Of a stretch of DNA of 64,000 nt, positions 5,136 to 11,541 are shown piece by piece (the first letter of the stretch is position 1; the number at the start of each line of letters is the position of its first letter). The position numbers and the translations under genes were made by a program. A model generated the notes under the pieces. It did no database searches, had not been told where the DNA came from, and saw nothing but the letters and a program-made list of their open reading frames with translations. Source of the stretch: an uncultured Thermoplasmata archaeon. Its GTDB lineage: Archaea > Thermoplasmatota > Thermoplasmata > RBG-16-68-12. The stretch covers positions 32,001-96,000 of the forward strand of contig CAVYJM010000021.1 of the NCBI GenBank assembly GCA_963768855.1, in the 5' to 3' direction.

Positions 5136-5210
5136 GGCGGGGTTGAGCCGTCCAGGTTGCCCACTTTCGGCGAGTCTTAATCTCCCGCCGTGGTAATGGC
5201 GTCGCCCTCC

Positions 5211-6029
5211 ATGACCCTCAAGGACAAGCTCCGCATCGGCTGCAGCGGCTGGGGCTACGACGACTGGCTCGGGAGCTACTACCCGAAGGAGACACCGAAG
5301 TCGGACTACCTGTCCCTGTACTCGAAGGTGTTCGACTGCGTCGAGGTGGACTCGTCCTTCTACCGCAACCCGGGCCCCGCGACGACGAAGTCCTGGTACA
5401 AGACCACCCCACCCGGCTTCCTGTTCACGATGAAGATGCCGAAGCGGATCACCCACGAGAAGAAGTTGCGGCAGGTGACGGAGCAGCTCGGGTGGTTCTA
5501 CGCCTCTGCGAAGGAGCTGAAGGAGAAGGCGGGACCCCTGGTGGCCCAGCTTCCCCCCTCGATCAAGTACGACCGCGACTGGACCGTGATGCAGGACTTC
5601 GTCAAGTCGCTCGACGCCTCGTATCGCCACGCGATCGAGTTCCGGCACGCCTCGTGGTTCCGCGAGGACGTCTATGGCCTCCTGAGGGACCGGAACGTGG
5701 CAATGGTCTGGACGGAGAATCAGTACCTGCGCAGCCCGTCGGCGGTCACCTCCGATTCGATCTACCTGCGCATGGTCGGGGACCGCGAGATCACGGAGTT
5801 CCACGAGGTCCAGAAGGACAAGTCCGCGGAGATGCGTGCGTGGTACAAGGAGCTCGAGGATGCTGCGGACTCCGTGAAGGGCGCGATGGTCTTCTTCAAT
5901 AACCACTACGCGGGGTTCGGGCCGGGCAGCGTGAACGAGTTCCGGCGCCTCGCGGGGCTCATGGAGTACGAATTCCCCGCGCAGGCCGGCGCCGGGATGG
6001 GCCAGAAGAGCCTCGTGGATTTCGGATGA
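5211..6029 (+). CDS. DUF72 (UPF0759/YecE) family protein with C-terminal PIP-box-like motif
   Basis: RIGCSGWGY, VEVDSSFY, QLPPS, AIEFRHASW, YLRMVG, FFNNHY; ends QKSLVDFG. TATA-like box about 30 nt upstream favours ATG 5211. Confidence 0.92.
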   Translation: MTLKDKLRIGCSGWGYDDWLGSYYPKETPKSDYLSLYSKVFDCVEVDSSFYRNPGPATTKSWYKTTPPGFLFTMKMPKRITHEKKLRQVTEQLGWFYASAKELKEKAGPLVAQLPPSIKYDRDWTVMQDFVKSLDASYRHAIEFRHASWFREDVYGLLRDRNVAMVWTENQYLRSPSAVTSDSIYLRMVGDREITEFHEVQKDKSAEMRAWYKELEDAADSVKGAMVFFNNHYAGFGPGSVNEFRRLAGLMEYEFPAQAGAGMGQKSLVDFG

Positions 6030-6042
6030 TCGACTCCTGAGG

Positions 6043-7692
6043 ATGTCCATGGCCGAAACCGCTCCGGACTCGAGCCGCGGGTTCCCGGTCATCCTGGTGC
6101 CCTACGATCCGGATTGGCCCGCGCAATTCGAGACGGAGAGGGACGCGATCCTCCGCGCGATCGGCGACCGGGTCGTGGCGATCGAGCACGTGGGGAGCAC
6201 CGCAGTCCCCGGTCTCCTGTCCAAGTCCACCCTCGACATCATGGTGGGCGTCTCCCGCCTCGACGGGGCGCAGGCCTGCATCGCGCCGCTGGAAGGCATC
6301 GGCTACGCCTACCGTCCCGACCTGGAGGCTGCGATGCCCGAACGTCGGTACTTCAACAAGGGCCCACGGGGCGCCCGGAGCTACCATCTCCACCTGGTCG
6401 AGTTCGGCCGGGAGTTCTGGATGCGCCACCTGCTCTTCCGCAACTTCCTGCGCGTCCATCCGGACCGCGCGGCGGCGTACGCGACCCTCAAGCAGGAGCT
6501 CGCGGCGAAGCACACCGCGGACCGGAATGCCTACACGGACGCGAAGGGTCCCTTCATCGAGGCCGCGGTCGCCGAGGCCCACACCGAGTTCGCGGGTCCC
6601 GATCCCGCGCGGGTGATCTTCCACGTGGACATGGACGCGTTCTATGTCAGCGTCGAGCGGCGGGAGAATCCGGAGCTCGTGGGCAAATCCGTCGTCGTGG
6701 GCGCGGACCCACGGGGCGGGAAAGGCCGCGGCGTTGTCATGGCGTGCAGCTATGAGGCCCGCCACCTCGGCATCCGGAGTGGCATGCCGATCGGGATGGC
6801 CTGGAAGAAGGTTCCCGAGGCCGTGTACCTGCCGCCGAACTACGACCTCTACGGCTCCGCGTCGGAGAGCGTCCTGGGCATCCTCCGCGGCTTCGCGGAT
6901 GTGCTCGAGCACCTGAGCATCGACGAGGCCTTCCTCGATATCACGTCGAAGGTCCACGGGTTTGACGATGTGGCGGGCTACGCCCAGGGGGTGAAGGCCG
7001 CTGTCCGCGAACGGGAAGGCCTGGCCTGCACGATTGGCGTCGCCCCGAACAAGTCCACCGCCAAGATCGCGTCGGACCTGGCGAAGCCCGACGGCCTCCT
7101 CGTCGTGCGTCCGGAGGAGGTCGCCCTGTTCCTGGCCCCGCTCCCGGTGACTCGGATCAGCGGGGTCGGGACGAAGACGGGGCAGGTCCTGGAGCATGCG
7201 GGGGTTCGCTCCATCGGGCAGCTCGCCGCGTTCCCGGGAGGCGAGCTGAAGAAGCTCCTCGGGAAGAACGCGGTGTGGCTGTGGGGCATCGCGAAGGGGA
7301 TCGAGCGGATGCCGGTCGAGGAGCGCCCCGACCCGAAGAGCATCAGCGTCGAACGCACCTTCGACCGGGATGTGGGCGACTGGCCCAAGGTCCTCGCGAC
7401 CCTGGACAGCATCTCGCACAACGTGTACCTGCGGGCGAAGGGCCAGGGCGCGGCGTTCCAGACCGTCGGGATCAAGGTGCGGTTCGAGGGGTTCCAGACG
7501 TTCCTGCGGGAGCGGAAGCTGCCCAGCCACATCCTCGATGAAGGCGCGCTGGCCCAGGTGACCCGCGATCTCGTGAAGGAGTTCGAGTCCCGCGGCCGAA
7601 AGGTCCGCTTGCTCGGCGTCCGCGTGACAGGCCTCGTACGACCGGGGACCCAACAGCCCACGCTGACCGAGTTCGAGGACGGGCCGACTTGA
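6043..7692 (+). CDS. dinB: GrpB (UPF0157) domain fused to Y-family DNA polymerase IV
   Basis: N-terminal YDPDWP...IEHVGSTAVPGL..K..LDI...HLHLV...FRNFLR..P...AY..LK (GrpB). From about nt 6610: HVDMDAFYVSVE, SYEAR..GIRSGM, SIDEAFLD, AKIASDLAKPDG, GVG.KT, VRLLGV. Ends QPTLTEF. Confidence 0.93.
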   Translation: MSMAETAPDSSRGFPVILVPYDPDWPAQFETERDAILRAIGDRVVAIEHVGSTAVPGLLSKSTLDIMVGVSRLDGAQACIAPLEGIGYAYRPDLEAAMPERRYFNKGPRGARSYHLHLVEFGREFWMRHLLFRNFLRVHPDRAAAYATLKQELAAKHTADRNAYTDAKGPFIEAAVAEAHTEFAGPDPARVIFHVDMDAFYVSVERRENPELVGKSVVVGADPRGGKGRGVVMACSYEARHLGIRSGMPIGMAWKKVPEAVYLPPNYDLYGSASESVLGILRGFADVLEHLSIDEAFLDITSKVHGFDDVAGYAQGVKAAVREREGLACTIGVAPNKSTAKIASDLAKPDGLLVVRPEEVALFLAPLPVTRISGVGTKTGQVLEHAGVRSIGQLAAFPGGELKKLLGKNAVWLWGIAKGIERMPVEERPDPKSISVERTFDRDVGDWPKVLATLDSISHNVYLRAKGQGAAFQTVGIKVRFEGFQTFLRERKLPSHILDEGALAQVTRDLVKEFESRGRKVRLLGVRVTGLVRPGTQQPTLTEFEDGPT

Positions 7693-7701
7693 AGTCTCCG
7701 T

Positions 7702-8940
7702 TCACTTGGCCAAGGGTGCCAGGAGGGGCAACGCGCCCTTCTCCTCCCGCAGGACGTCGCCGAGGATGCCGATCCCCTTGCGGATGTTCGCGTCGCTCGG
7801 GAAGCTGAAGTTGAGGCGCATGTGGTTGACCTCGGGCTTCCCGGCGTAGAAGCCGTGGCCGGCGACGTAGATCACGCCTCGGCTTGCGGCCCGCGGCAGG
7901 AGCTCCTTCGTGTCGATGGAGGGATCGATCGTCGTCCACAGGAACAGGCCGCCCTGGGGGCGCGTCCACTCCGTGTTGTCCGGCCAGGTCTGATCGAGGG
8001 TCTCGAGCATCACGTCCCGCTTGCGGCGGTACAGCCGGCGGATTTTGGGCAGGTGCTTCTTCATGAGCCCCAGGCTCAGATACCGCTCCGCGACCCGCTG
8101 GCCGAAGCCGTTCGTGAAGAGGTCCACGCCCTGCTTCGCGAGGGCCATCTTCGCGATCAAGTCGGACGGTCCGTGCGCGAAGCCGACCCGGAAGCCCGGT
8201 GCGAGGACCTTGCTGAAACTGCCCAAATAGATGACCCATCCTTCCTTGTCGAGGGAGGCGATCGGTGGCACGGGCTCGCCTTCGAACCGCACGTCGTAGT
8301 ACGGATCGTCCTCGATGACGGGGATCTCGTACTGCGCCGCGAGGTCGACGAGCGCTCGCCGGCGGCGCAGGGACATCGTCACGCCCGTGGGGTTGTGGAA
8401 CGTCGGGACGACGTAGAGGAACTTGGGCCGGATGCGGTCCATGGCCAGCGCCCTCAGGTTCTCCTCGAGGACGTCCGTCAGGATGCCCTCCTCGTCCGTG
8501 GGCACGCCGTGGTACATCGGCTGGTACACACTGATCGCGGTGAAGATCCCCAGGTACGTGGGCTGGGTGACCATCGCGATGTCGCCCGGGTCCAGGAAGA
8601 CGCGGCCGAAGAGCTCGAGCGCCTGCTGGGCGCCGTGGGTGACGATGATCTGTTCCGGGTTCGCGGCGATCCCGCGCGACTTCATCATCGTCGCGAGGGC
8701 CTGCTTCAGGAGCGGGTCCCCGGGCGTCGGGCCATACTGTAACGACGGCGTGTCGTCCTCGTTCAGGAGTTCCTCGAAGACGATCTTGAGGTCCTCGACC
8801 GGGAACGCATCCGGGCTCGGCAGCCCGCCTCCGAAGCTGATCACCGTGGGGTCCTGCGAATACTTCAGGAGTTCCCGCACGTCCGACCCCTTCAGTAGCT
8901 TCGCGCGCTCCGAGAACAGAGGTTCGAGGTTGGGCGCCAT
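7702..8940 (-). CDS. PLP-dependent aminotransferase class I/II (LysN/ARO8-like)
   Basis: ISFGGGLP, QYGPTPG, PTFHNPTG, IEDDPY, GSFSKVLAPGFRVG, MRLNFS. Confidence 0.92.
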   Translation of the reverse strand: MAPNLEPLFSERAKLLKGSDVRELLKYSQDPTVISFGGGLPSPDAFPVEDLKIVFEELLNEDDTPSLQYGPTPGDPLLKQALATMMKSRGIAANPEQIIVTHGAQQALELFGRVFLDPGDIAMVTQPTYLGIFTAISVYQPMYHGVPTDEEGILTDVLEENLRALAMDRIRPKFLYVVPTFHNPTGVTMSLRRRRALVDLAAQYEIPVIEDDPYYDVRFEGEPVPPIASLDKEGWVIYLGSFSKVLAPGFRVGFAHGPSDLIAKMALAKQGVDLFTNGFGQRVAERYLSLGLMKKHLPKIRRLYRRKRDVMLETLDQTWPDNTEWTRPQGGLFLWTTIDPSIDTKELLPRAASRGVIYVAGHGFYAGKPEVNHMRLNFSFPSDANIRKGIGILGDVLREEKGALPLLAPLAK

Positions 8941-9034
8941 GGCTATCGAGCGAATATACGTCGGCCCCTGCCTCTGAACCAATTGCATATTCCGTAAGGT
9001 TGAGAAAACTTGACACGACGCGAGATTGCACGGA

Positions 9035-9715
9035 CTAACGATTTAGGTGGTCCGAGGCACGCAACACGCGTCCCGTCACGCCGCGGGATTCGTCGGAGGC
9101 CAGATACACGAAGACCTCCGTGACTTGTTTCGGCTCTTTCCCTGCGAAACCTGACATCTTCGTTGCCACCAGCCCGGGATTGACGACGTTCACCCGTTGC
9201 GGCAGCTCGGCCGCCAGCTCGAGCGACAGTCCTTCCAAGGCCCATTTGCTCAACGAGTACGGGAAATACCCCGTCGCGGGACCCTTGGAGAGCCCCGACG
9301 TCACGTTAATGATCGACCCGTCCCGCGGCATGTGCGGAGCCAGATGCTTCACGAGCAGCCACGGCGCGCGGAGGTTCACGGCCATCGTGCGATCGTAGTC
9401 CTCGACGGTCCCGCGGACGGCCGGGCCGAGCCCTTCGTAGATGCCCGCGTTGTTGACGAGCACGTCCACCCGTCCGAATCCCTCCACGCACCCGCGGGCG
9501 GCCGCCTCGATTCCTTCGGACGAGGTCAGGTCGCAAGGGATCGCGAGCGCGTTGCCTCCCTTGCTGCGGATGGCGGCGGCCGTTTCCTCGAGTTCCGCCT
9601 CGGACCGCGCGAGCAGGGCCACCCGGCCCCCTTCCTCGGCGAATCGCTCCGCGACGGCCCGCCCGATCCCGCGGCCAGCACCCGTGACAACCGCGGCCTT
9701 GCCCTCGAGCCTCAC
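9035..9715 (-). CDS. SDR family oxidoreductase
   Basis: VTGAGRGIG, VLVNNAG, YSLSK (YxxxK), NPG.VAT. GTGA overlap with the upstream gene. Confidence 0.9.
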   Translation of the reverse strand: MRLEGKAAVVTGAGRGIGRAVAERFAEEGGRVALLARSEAELEETAAAIRSKGGNALAIPCDLTSSEGIEAAARGCVEGFGRVDVLVNNAGIYEGLGPAVRGTVEDYDRTMAVNLRAPWLLVKHLAPHMPRDGSIINVTSGLSKGPATGYFPYSLSKWALEGLSLELAAELPQRVNVVNPGLVATKMSGFAGKEPKQVTEVFVYLASDESRGVTGRVLRASDHLNR

Positions 9716-10338
9716 AGTTCCGCCCTCCGGATGCGCGGCAGGAGGCGGCCCGTACGGGCCATGTACGCCTCGTACGCCCCGCCGAACGCCTGCGGAGACC
9801 GCAGGAAGTCCTCCTCCAGCCCGGCCCGGTATCGCGCGAGGAAGGCGAGGAGAAGCGACACGAGGAGGAGGGGCGCGCTCAGGAAGACGAGAGCGAGGCC
9901 GAAGGCGAAGGCCGCCACCGCCGTGTACGTCGGATGGCGGACGAACGCGTACGGGCCTTCCTGGACGAGCGTCTGGCCTTCCACAACCTGAATCGAGACG
10001 GTCATGAACCGTCCGAGGGTCCGGATGGCCCAGACCGCGAGACCCCCCGCACCGGCCCAGAGGAGGAGCCCGGCGACCTGGACCACCGTGGAGCCGGGGA
10101 AGTCCCCGAGCGACGGCGCTCCATAGAACCAGCCGGGTGCGAGGGCCACGCCCAAGGTCCACAGCTGGGCCACGGCAATCGCGCCGAGCCACAGGCCCTC
10201 GACGCGCCGGGCGGGATGGCGGGACCGCATGGTCCGATCCCTCGGACCGAACGCGGATCGCCCCACCGCGGCGGCTCCCGCGGCGGGAGCGAGGAAGAGC
10301 ACGGCGCCCACGATCTGGATGGTCCCGGGGTCCAGCAT
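9712..10338 (-). CDS. Isoprenylcysteine carboxylmethyltransferase (ICMT/PEMT) family membrane protein
   Basis: LVQEGPYAFVRHPTY, EEDFL, YEAY...TGR. Confidence 0.85.
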   Translation of the reverse strand: MLDPGTIQIVGAVLFLAPAAGAAAVGRSAFGPRDRTMRSRHPARRVEGLWLGAIAVAQLWTLGVALAPGWFYGAPSLGDFPGSTVVQVAGLLLWAGAGGLAVWAIRTLGRFMTVSIQVVEGQTLVQEGPYAFVRHPTYTAVAAFAFGLALVFLSAPLLLVSLLLAFLARYRAGLEEDFLRSPQAFGGAYEAYMARTGRLLPRIRRAEL

Positions 10339-10377
10339 CCGTCCCCTCGAAGCGGCGGGGGCTAATGGGCTTGCGCG

Positions 10378-11541
10378 TCAGTTCAGCGGCGTCGCCTCGT
10401 TGACCTCGTGCACGACCTTGAGCCCCATGCGTCCCATGAGCCGCAGGCTTTCCGCGGGATCGAGACATTCCGCGGAGATGACGCCGGTCTGCGTGATCTG
10501 CCCGCGGACGAGCTGGGTCGCGAAGACCGCCGCGCCCGTGCCGACGAGGTACCCCGTCGCGGTCGCGTTGTGCCTCCGCGCGGCGTCCTCGTGCCGCATC
10601 CCAGTGTAGAGCCGGTGCCTCACCCGCCGCCCGTCCTTCAGGCCGTCGACCTCGACGACGATCATCGCGGTCCCCGTCACCTTCCCGACCAGGTCGGCAG
10701 GCCGGCGGACGAGGCTCATCAGCATCTTCCGCGGGGAGACGCTCTTCCCCTCCACGGTCACCGGCTCCTCGCTGAGCAAACCGAGGCGGTGGATCGTGTG
10801 GAGGATCTCGTACGTGGCGTCGTCGATCGCGAGCTTCAGGTCGACGTAGCGGAGCCCCTTGCCGATGAACCTGCCAAGGGTCTCCGGCTCCTCGTGGTCC
10901 ATCAGATACACGGGCTGCGGGCCGACCGGCTCGGGGAACGGGTAGATCTCCTTCCCGCTCCACGGCGGCGGCCGGACGAGGCCGCCGTCCTCGAAGTAGA
11001 GTCCCGGGCTGAACACCTCGACGAGGAACGTCTCCGGGGACCACACGACGGGCAGGGGCGTGTCCGGCGAGGAGGCGGTGTCCCCGTCGCGGATTCGGAT
11101 GGCGTTCACGGAATCGAGCGCGTCCGCCCCGTGCCGCGCGAGGACGTTGCCGAGTCCGGGATCCTCGCCGCCGCCCAGGAGCGCCGTGAGGCCCGCTTTG
11201 CGGAACTTCGCGTCGTACGGCAGCTGCTTGGACGGTTCCGACGAGAGGTCCATGTAGTGCGACCCCGCGTCGAGGCAGGCTTCCATCAGCGGGAGGTCCA
11301 GGCTGGCGTGGGCCGCGTTGATCGCGAGGTCGGCGTCCTTCAGGGCTTTGGCTAGGACGCCGACGTCAAGCCCCTTCACGGGCGCCGCCCGCGCCTTCAG
11401 GCTCCGGAGCATGGCAGCGAGAGCCCGGGCCCGCGCCGGCACGAGGTCGGTCAGGACGAGGTCGTCGATCTCCTTCAGGCGCACCAGGTGGCGGGCGGCC
11501 ACGGTCCCCATGGCTCCCGCTCCGAACAGGACGATGCGAAT
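10378..11541 (-). CDS. Saccharopine dehydrogenase-like NAD(P)-dependent oxidoreductase (probable ATT start; upstream GTG at 11580)
   Basis: RIVLFGAGAMG, HYMDLS, GGEDPGL, WSPETF, HEEPET. Confidence 0.85.
   Translation of the reverse strand: MRIVLFGAGAMGTVAARHLVRLKEIDDLVLTDLVPARARALAAMLRSLKARAAPVKGLDVGVLAKALKDADLAINAAHASLDLPLMEACLDAGSHYMDLSSEPSKQLPYDAKFRKAGLTALLGGGEDPGLGNVLARHGADALDSVNAIRIRDGDTASSPDTPLPVVWSPETFLVEVFSPGLYFEDGGLVRPPPWSGKEIYPFPEPVGPQPVYLMDHEEPETLGRFIGKGLRYVDLKLAIDDATYEILHTIHRLGLLSEEPVTVEGKSVSPRKMLMSLVRRPADLVGKVTGTAMIVVEVDGLKDGRRVRHRLYTGMRHEDAARRHNATATGYLVGTGAAVFATQLVRGQITQTGVISAECLDPAESLRLMGRMGLKVVHEVNEATPLN

Follow-up and report, generated by a model that had tools for sequence, protein, structure and literature searches.

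What does a GrpB domain do at the head of a DNA polymerase? The question is raised by a reading frame in the stretch of DNA analysed here (64,000 nt, hereafter the window), which lies on contig 21 of the genome of an uncultured Thermoplasmata archaeon (2.87 Mb in 24 contigs, 93.6% complete, 7.7% contamination). In this frame, a domain of the GrpB (UPF0157) family precedes a Y-family DNA polymerase of the DinB (Pol IV) type. A first-pass annotation, made from the letters of the sequence, proposed that the product is a translesion or repair enzyme with two nucleotidyltransferase activities. We favour another answer, to which we give about an even chance (a probability of roughly 0.5): in a fusion that is genuine and restricted to one lineage, GrpB would be a dispensable accessory module, serving in the same stress response as the polymerase and standing outside the polymerase reaction. 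On the best reading, GrpB is not a second polymerase-like activity on DNA.

One reading frame, two domains

The frame and its parts are listed in Table 1. Frame translation of the window gave no interruption over 549 aa and, together with the Pfam matches, bore out the first-pass annotation, which had described an uninterrupted frame of that length with GrpB followed by DinB; the motifs that it quoted are all in place (GSTAVPGLLSKSTLDI at aa 51-66, DMDAFY at aa 196-201 and SIDE at aa 292-295). The true start is probably the second ATG, at 6049, which would give 547 aa, because a Shine-Dalgarno-like TGAGG lies 6 nt upstream of it, GAGG-like motifs are also found ahead of the fused genes' start codons in four other genomes (loci L005-L008), and the database copy of the window protein (P0003) is 547 aa long. 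In the alignment of the 18 clusters of fused proteins described below, the first 12 residues differ in sequence and in length.

The window protein scored 310 bits against the NCBIfam Pol IV model PRK02406, versus a cut-off of 256, and all the parts that define a Y-family polymerase were matched with Pfam, i.e. the IMS palm and fingers, the helix-hairpin-helix thumb and the IMS_C little finger. The catalytic residues D196, D198, D294 and E295 and the steric-gate Y201 are invariant in all 18 fused proteins; we take their counterparts in Dpo4 to be the catalytic carboxylates D7, D105 and E106 and the steric-gate aromatic Y12. In Foldseek, the polymerase fold of the AlphaFold2 (AF2) model matched the DNA complexes of Dpo4, DinB and MsDpo4 with E values of ~1e-30 and target-normalised template-modelling (TM) scores of 0.79-0.85. 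The polymerase half appears complete and is presumably active in translesion synthesis. Near its end, Q538, P539, L541 and F544 are invariant among the fused proteins, and the unfused DinB orthologs end in the same Q-P-x-L-x-x-F motif. The QPTLTEFE tail resembles what we take to be the consensus of the PCNA-interacting peptide (PIP), with one aromatic residue only; this candidate tail would stay free because the extra domain is N-terminal.

The source genome has one GrpB, the fused one, and two Y-family polymerases. The second of these stands alone (375 aa; G000 contig 12, L002:1459-2586, + strand) and shares 42% identity with the fused polymerase, and such a free paralog is also present in nearly all congeners.

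The GrpB half matched Pfam PF04229 with 166.9 bits (cut-off 25.5, E 5e-49) over profile positions 1-157 of 159. By sequence it matched the E. faecalis GrpB of known structure (2nrk) with 37% identity (E 7e-30) and the GrpB domain of mycobacterial CoaE (6n39) with an E value of 2e-14. Structure prediction, which the first-pass annotation had proposed as a check, yielded confident models for both halves, a GrpB fold and a Dpo4-like fold. For the GrpB domain, the model (predicted local distance difference test, pLDDT, 92.6) could be laid on 2nrk with a Z of 23.4 and a root-mean-square deviation of 1.7 A, 164 of 165 residues being aligned, and on 6n39 with a Z of 20.5. Judged against a diverse set of GrpB domains, the conserved residues were kept (W25, H49, G51, S52, T53, K61, D65, G87, Y88, H115, H117, R133, R137, Y146, K150, Y164 and K168), and the family pattern H-x-G-S-T...K...D, H-x-H, R..LR, Y...K, Y...K is intact. 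The next structural matches were CD-NTases, terminal uridylyltransferases, OAS1, poly(A) polymerases and Pol X, with Z values of 6-8 over 150-165 residues, a weak range that can arise without kinship; a review groups GrpB with those nucleotidyltransferase families (PMC7288161). D134N, in the FRD motif, was considered as a fusion-specific change of an invariant Asp and was rejected, as 2nrk also has Asn.

The junction between the two halves consists of the end of the last GrpB helix, about 8 residues (EFAGPDPA) and the first strand of the palm, RVIFH. It is free of indels across the 18 fused clusters, with A179, E182 and G185 invariant and P188 and R190 conserved in at least 90%. GrpB is thereby linked through a tether of about 8 residues to the strand that bears catalytic D196. 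The full-length AF2 model had a pLDDT of 91.6, with about 90 at the junction, and a predicted TM score (pTM) of 0.85, which suggests a defined arrangement of the two domains.

Distribution and history of the fusion

Among 5.8 billion proteins, 18 clusters at 90% identity had the same five Pfam domains, one of them being the window protein. Their members are 544-549 aa long, 72-82% identical to the query, and come from NCBI, ENA, JGI and Logan assemblies; one was deposited as HYM40725.1, 'DNA polymerase IV [Thermoplasmata archaeon]'. In the genus, taken here as the 38 species genomes of the collection, 5 carry the fusion. With 17 further clusters and 5 species genomes, the concern raised at the outset that the fusion might exist in this assembly only can be set aside. 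The parallel concern that it might be split in relatives was partly borne out: GrpB is absent from most relatives and is a separate gene in one species (G004), against five in which it is fused.

Outside these proteins, the architecture was not encountered. A word-indexed search of the 5.8 billion proteins with the GrpB part returned, as GrpB-polymerase fusions, only the same clusters; no other GrpB+DinB protein was among the best 150 matches of a HMMER search of 1.84 billion representatives; among 301 genomes of the class, the fused species were the only ones to show GrpB frames of at least 500 aa; the ESM Atlas held no large cluster with this architecture; and full-text literature searches gave no published description of a GrpB-DinB fusion. 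The fusion was thus found in a 7-species subclade of one genus only. By its predicted domains, GrpB-DinB is a new architecture of a well-known polymerase family, restricted to few species.

A few other DinB fusions turned up in the search of representatives. Thg1 (a 3'-5' nucleotidyltransferase) + DinB and DinB + a MobA-like NTP transferase were single-member clusters, which may be artefacts; DinB + DUF6504 and DUF72 + DinB were also seen. These rare proteins are P0260 (600 aa, from a Planctomycetota metagenome-assembled genome, MHC4984124.1), P0216 (578 aa), P0311 (492 aa) and P0305 (696 aa), the last being the DUF72+IMS protein.

A locus tree was built from the concatenated polymerase, DUF72 and aminotransferase proteins. 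In it, the five fused species and two species without GrpB (G014 and G016) form a 7-species clade with support 100/100, a group that was defined after a first tree had been seen. G014 and G016 are nested within the fusion clade, and a clade of fused species only was rejected (approximately unbiased, AU, test, p 5e-14). The DinB proteins of these two species start with M-(K/T)-P-P-x-E-x-R-T followed by RVIF, which is like the P-P-E-S-S-R leader of the fused proteins; that of the sister species that never had GrpB starts with M-A-R-V-I-F. This supports, as the simplest history, one fusion followed by two in-frame deletions of GrpB.

In the tree of the GrpB domains, the fused domains cluster with the standalone GrpB of the congener G027 (Shimodaira-Hasegawa-like approximate likelihood ratio test, SH-aLRT, 89). 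The G004 copy, whose host sits in a distant branch of the locus tree, is set apart from them, yet a common origin was not rejected (AU p 0.39). GrpB may have come into the slot a single time, or a second time independently in G004. An apparent continuation of the similarity of the G027 standalone GrpB into the N-terminus of DinB was considered as a remnant of the fusion and rejected as a chance match beyond the stop codon.

In pairwise comparisons of the five fused genomes, the ratio of nonsynonymous to synonymous divergence (dN/dS) was 0.16-0.32 for GrpB and 0.10-0.17 for the polymerase, at dS of 0.6-1.0. Both halves are under purifying selection, GrpB being somewhat less constrained. The fusion is stable in the sense that the same junction occurs in several species with a dN/dS below 0.33 in both halves.

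A variable slot upstream of DinB

The gene order at the locus is Na+/H+ exchanger (-), DUF72 (+), GrpB-DinB (+), aminotransferase (-) and short-chain dehydrogenase/reductase (SDR) protein (-). It is kept across the genus, with neighbours 80-95% identical. An ortholog of DinB was found in all congeners in which the region is assembled (72-86% identity), and DUF72 lies directly upstream of it throughout the genus. DUF72 is a TIM barrel related to UV-damage endonuclease and has been reported to be enriched beside archaeal and bacterial operons of the translesion polymerase PolB2 (PMC11791011).

What varies is the slot between DUF72 and DinB. It holds a gene of ~130 aa of the vicinal oxygen chelate (VOC) type (Glyoxalase_6, PF18029) in 16 congeners; two outgroup-family genomes have this gene as well, and this is probably the older state. 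The slot is empty in about ten congeners. In five species it holds the fused GrpB. In G004 (locus L016), a separate GrpB of 190 aa with its own TAG stop is followed by a spacer of ~40 nt and by DinB in another frame. Altogether, 8 of the 38 genomes of the genus have GrpB; 6 have it joined to the DinB ortholog or immediately upstream of it. The remaining two copies are located at other sites, one of them with a frameshift (G018 contig 26, L018, ~2218-2678, - strand): its GrpB is split over two frames, by pseudogene formation or sequencing error. Compared with the GrpB fusion, the VOC-DinB pair is more widespread and probably older, and it may connect the detoxification of electrophiles with the bypass of lesions.

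The window has 67% G+C, and G+C at third codon positions (GC3) is 0.90 in both halves of the gene, as in its neighbours. A recent foreign origin of the GrpB half was considered and rejected, its G+C and GC3 being equal to those of the polymerase half and of the neighbours.

Table 1. Features of the fusion locus (positions in the window) and of the VOC gene (position in its own locus)
Feature	Position	Strand	Remarks
GrpB-DinB fusion ORF	6043..7692	+	549 aa from ATG 6043; stop codon 7690-7692
TGAGG, Shine-Dalgarno-like motif	6036..6040	+	6 nt upstream of ATG 6049
GrpB / UPF0157 domain	6085..6570	+	aa 15-176; Pfam PF04229
Junction	6571..6624	+	aa 177-194, 18 residues
IMS, Y-family palm + fingers	6625..7077	+	aa 195-345; PF00817, E 6e-43
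Thumb / helix-hairpin-helix region	7111..7302	+	aa 357-420; PF21704 + PF11798
Little-finger domain, IMS_C	7333..7665	+	aa 431-541; PF11799, E 2e-20
PIP-like motif QPTLTEFE	7654..7677	+	aa 538-545; candidate PCNA-binding tail
DUF72 gene, upstream operon partner	5190..6029	+	279 aa; PF01904, E 2e-58; ends 13 nt before fusion ORF
Class I/II aminotransferase gene, convergent, downstream array boundary	7702..8988	-	PF00155; syntenic in congeners
VOC gene	L013:1070-1447	+	Equivalents: L012, L019, L020, L022, L024, L025, L028, L029, L031-L038, L040

GrpB outside the fusion

GrpB is widespread in bacteria and archaea. It was found in 72 of the 301 genomes sampled from the class and, in the control set, in Bacillus subtilis, Deinococcus radiodurans and Methanosarcina acetivorans. 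With the GrpB part as query, multidomain proteins (301-961 aa) were recovered in which GrpB is combined with a second GrpB, CMP/dCMP deaminase, AAA_33 kinases, DUF4127, GNAT, NUDIX, SIR2, HAD, RimM, hexapeptide transferase and CoaE; the fusions to dephospho-CoA kinase or GNATs, which the first-pass annotation gave as background, were confirmed among them. The chemistry of these other partners (kinases, GNATs, NUDIX, SIR2, deaminases) is that of nucleotides, cofactors or small molecules.

The tandem GrpB-GrpB proteins (P0123-P0134, 357-369 aa) have their two copies on different branches of the GrpB tree, and in the first copy Gln often replaces the conserved His115, which points to pseudo-dimers in which one site has degenerated.

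Standalone GrpB genes were found next to genes for a PIN-ATPase-KH protein, a SAM hydroxide adenosyltransferase, lysyl-tRNA synthetase, DUF885 and an ANT(2'')-like protein. The last of these lies in a neighbouring family (L041:818-1399, - strand), with a weak match to aminoglycoside-2''-adenylyltransferase (PF10706, E 4e-8), and is the divergent neighbour of a GrpB gene (L041:1499-2035, + strand) that is also flanked by the PIN-ATPase-KH protein and SAM hydroxide adenosyltransferase genes.

What GrpB may contribute

The account that we favour runs as follows. A GrpB gene would have entered the slot between DUF72 and DinB, and this unfused state would survive in one species. Read-through between the operon neighbours would then have led to GrpB being joined in frame to the N-terminus of DinB in the ancestor of the 7-species subclade. 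GrpB would act in the same stress response as DinB and DUF72, most likely with a nucleotide or a small molecule that damages DNA as the target that it binds or modifies; comparable roles may fall to the putative acetyltransferase YafP of the E. coli dinB operon and to the glyoxalase-like VOC protein that takes this slot in other species. Fusion would secure equal dosage of GrpB and its co-localisation with the polymerase that bypasses the resulting lesions.

GrpB is taken to be accessory, and not integral to the polymerase, because it is absent from most relatives, split in one and lost twice. DinB does not need GrpB, as is shown by the two later deletions and by the 30 of 38 congeners that lack it; this argues against the strong forms both of a structural-helper role and of a direct partnership at DNA ends or nucleotides. 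Finally, a small-molecule or nucleotide role is suggested by the VOC gene in the same slot, by the other partners of GrpB, by the bypass by DinB of the methylglyoxal adduct N2-carboxyethyl-dG (N2-CEdG) (PMC3901139) and by the dinB-yafP pair of E. coli, where dinB is co-transcribed with yafP, which codes for a putative acetyltransferase that alters the toxicity of nitroaromatic genotoxins (PMC3105422). The roles open to GrpB would thus rank as [accessory small-molecule or nucleotide activity > structural or regulatory helper > direct partner at DNA ends or nucleotides > neutral fusion].

A bolder version, which we hold quite tentatively, would make GrpB a DNA-damage-stress enzyme whose pocket binds or nucleotidylates a genotoxic compound, a damaged nucleotide or a DNA end, GrpB and VOC being interchangeable front-line detoxifiers for the same polymerase. 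If this were true, the DinB fusion beside a DUF72 resembling UV-damage endonuclease would be the first 'Rosetta stone' pointing to a role of GrpB in damage stress.

Several points weigh against the accessory-module account. On the side of the protein, the canonical motif hG[GS]...[DE]h[DE]h is incomplete: G51-S52 and D65 are present and the second carboxylate is missing (D65-I66-M67). An uncharged residue (Met, Leu or Gln) occupies position 67 in every fused protein, as it does in 2nrk (Leu) and in 6n39 (Gln). One can therefore not be sure of classical two-metal nucleotidyl transfer; the missing carboxylate is a family-wide trait, which lowers the likelihood of such a transfer and leaves room for another mechanism. 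GrpB may not be a Pol-beta-type transferase at all, and H115-x-H117 with several Arg and Lys suggests a metal and phosphate site of another kind. Full-text literature searches found no assigned activity for any GrpB protein, and in the only experimental work on a GrpB domain, that on M. tuberculosis CoaE, the domain serves folding and soluble expression, not catalysis (PMC2765170, PMC13629385). A high pTM with a fixed junction would fit a rigid integrated module equally well as an independent one. On the side of the genomes, the standalone GrpB genes of related families have no repair genes as neighbours, recombination between species at the locus could distort the locus tree, and the two losses together with the absence from 30 of 38 congeners make the GrpB-DinB link weak or conditional. 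The analogy between GrpB, VOC and YafP, for its part, is drawn from position only.

The rival that survives best, doubtful as we find it, makes GrpB a structural or regulatory N-terminal module without catalysis of its own, i.e. a helper for folding or solubility, a handle for dimerisation or a nucleotide-sensing regulator. It draws on the folding and solubility role in M. tuberculosis CoaE, on the fusion of GrpB to many unrelated enzymes, as would be expected of a generic helper, on the short, indel-free and partly invariant junction, on the pTM of 0.85, which suggests a fixed arrangement of the domains, and on the incomplete [DE]x[DE] motif. Yet every unfused ortholog (72-83% identical) and the two lineages with secondary loss manage without GrpB, the standalone form is common in the class (72/301 genomes), and all the family-conserved residues of GrpB are kept, including the charged and His residues of the type found in ligand or metal sites, which a mere scaffold would not need.

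The idea of the first-pass annotation, that GrpB is a second nucleotidyltransferase working on DNA, primer ends or damaged nucleotides alongside the polymerase (tailing, end activation or processing of the nucleotide pool), seems to us improbable, and more so than the helper. Part of it stood: the hG[GS]...D elements are present and both halves look functional. The folds nearest to the domain after GrpB itself are those of template-independent nucleotidyltransferases acting on 3' ends or NTPs (Z ~7-8), but a Z of ~8 falls in a range common for unrelated folds. The tether of about 8 residues brings GrpB close to the strand with catalytic D196, and the upstream DUF72 is a putative damage endonuclease; no GrpB, however, is known to bind nucleic acid, and elsewhere in the order GrpB is unlinked to repair genes. 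DinB is occasionally fused to other nucleotidyltransferases (Thg1 and a MobA-like NTP transferase), though as singletons. The part of the claim concerning two nucleotidyltransferases is set back by the missing second carboxylate (Met67) and by the folding role in CoaE, and GrpB was lost twice while the polymerase stayed. As for action on DNA ends or damaged nucleotides, the context, with VOC in the same slot, fits a small-molecule or nucleotide partner at least equally well, and we did not retain it.

Still less probable is a neutral accident, in which a stop codon and spacer were lost between adjacent genes and the halves are independent and functionally unrelated. The slot upstream of DinB is indeed fluid (VOC, empty or GrpB), GrpB is promiscuous as a fusion partner, and the fusion is young, confined to the 7-species clade and undone twice by deletion. 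A neutral origin is nonetheless disfavoured because the two halves have stayed fused over a divergence of dS ~0.6-1.0, each under purifying selection, and because the junction is conserved and indel-free; moreover, 6 of the 8 GrpB-carrying genomes of the genus have GrpB fused to or just upstream of the same DinB, one of them, G004, in a distant branch of the locus tree. Lastly, an assembly, frameshift or gene-calling artefact that conceals two genes, for which the metagenome-assembled type of the genome, its 24 contigs and its 7.7% estimated contamination could be invoked, can hardly be upheld, because the same frame and an identical indel-free junction recur in 5 species genomes and 18 clusters, drawn from four independent sources, synteny with congeners extends to the flanking genes (80-95% identity), and sequence inspection found neither a stop codon nor a Shine-Dalgarno-like motif before the internal GTG at aa 190.

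Implications for GrpB and for Y-family polymerases

For uncharacterised families such as GrpB, of which two crystal structures exist, computation offers few clues, and fusion to an enzyme whose role is known is one of them. Here GrpB is linked to a translesion polymerase and to the putative damage endonuclease DUF72, both by the fusion and by the separate GrpB gene that a congener has in this position. The association of GrpB with DNA-damage tolerance is genuine but weak. Thus, of the 'rare functional clue' announced by the first-pass annotation, the tie to a translesion polymerase stands, and the clue itself is modest, the fusion being young, present in few species and lost twice. On the polymerase side, a new accessory-domain architecture is added to the Y family. 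Just upstream of this dinB lies a slot where one small enzyme can take the place of another (VOC, GrpB), a situation reminiscent of the variable dinB-yafP operon of E. coli.

One more gene of the window deserves mention. In a 669-aa frame (9035-11044, - strand), a short-chain dehydrogenase domain is confined to the last 220 residues; the first ~440 gave no Pfam match, and this arrangement is conserved in congeners.

Comparison with known systems

Residues 190-549 match the palm-fingers-thumb-little-finger layout of the characterised Y-family polymerases (DinB/Pol IV/Dpo4; PDB 1jx4, 1n48, 4irc and 6juo), from which the fusion protein differs by its N-terminal GrpB domain of 185 residues. In the DUF72-DinB fusion (P0305), an upstream partner has also been joined to the N-terminus of DinB, but that partner is a TIM barrel, and in the window DUF72 is a separate gene. 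Standalone GrpB, as exemplified by EF_0920 (2nrk), has the same fold and the same conserved residues but is a free protein. Another parallel is mycobacterial CoaE-GrpB (6n39; PMC2765170), where a GrpB domain of the shared fold is likewise covalently joined to a nucleotide-using enzyme. There, GrpB is C-terminal, its partner is a P-loop kinase and the combination is widespread in Actinobacteria, whereas the present fusion places GrpB at the N-terminus of a DNA polymerase and is confined to a few archaeal species. Finally, the E. coli dinB-yafN-yafO-yafP operon (PMC3105422) resembles the fusion in that Pol IV is tied to a small enzyme of the xenobiotic-modifying type, in a set of genes whose content varies between strains. 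YafP is of the GNAT type, encoded separately and downstream, and has no homology to GrpB; the likeness is one of logic only.

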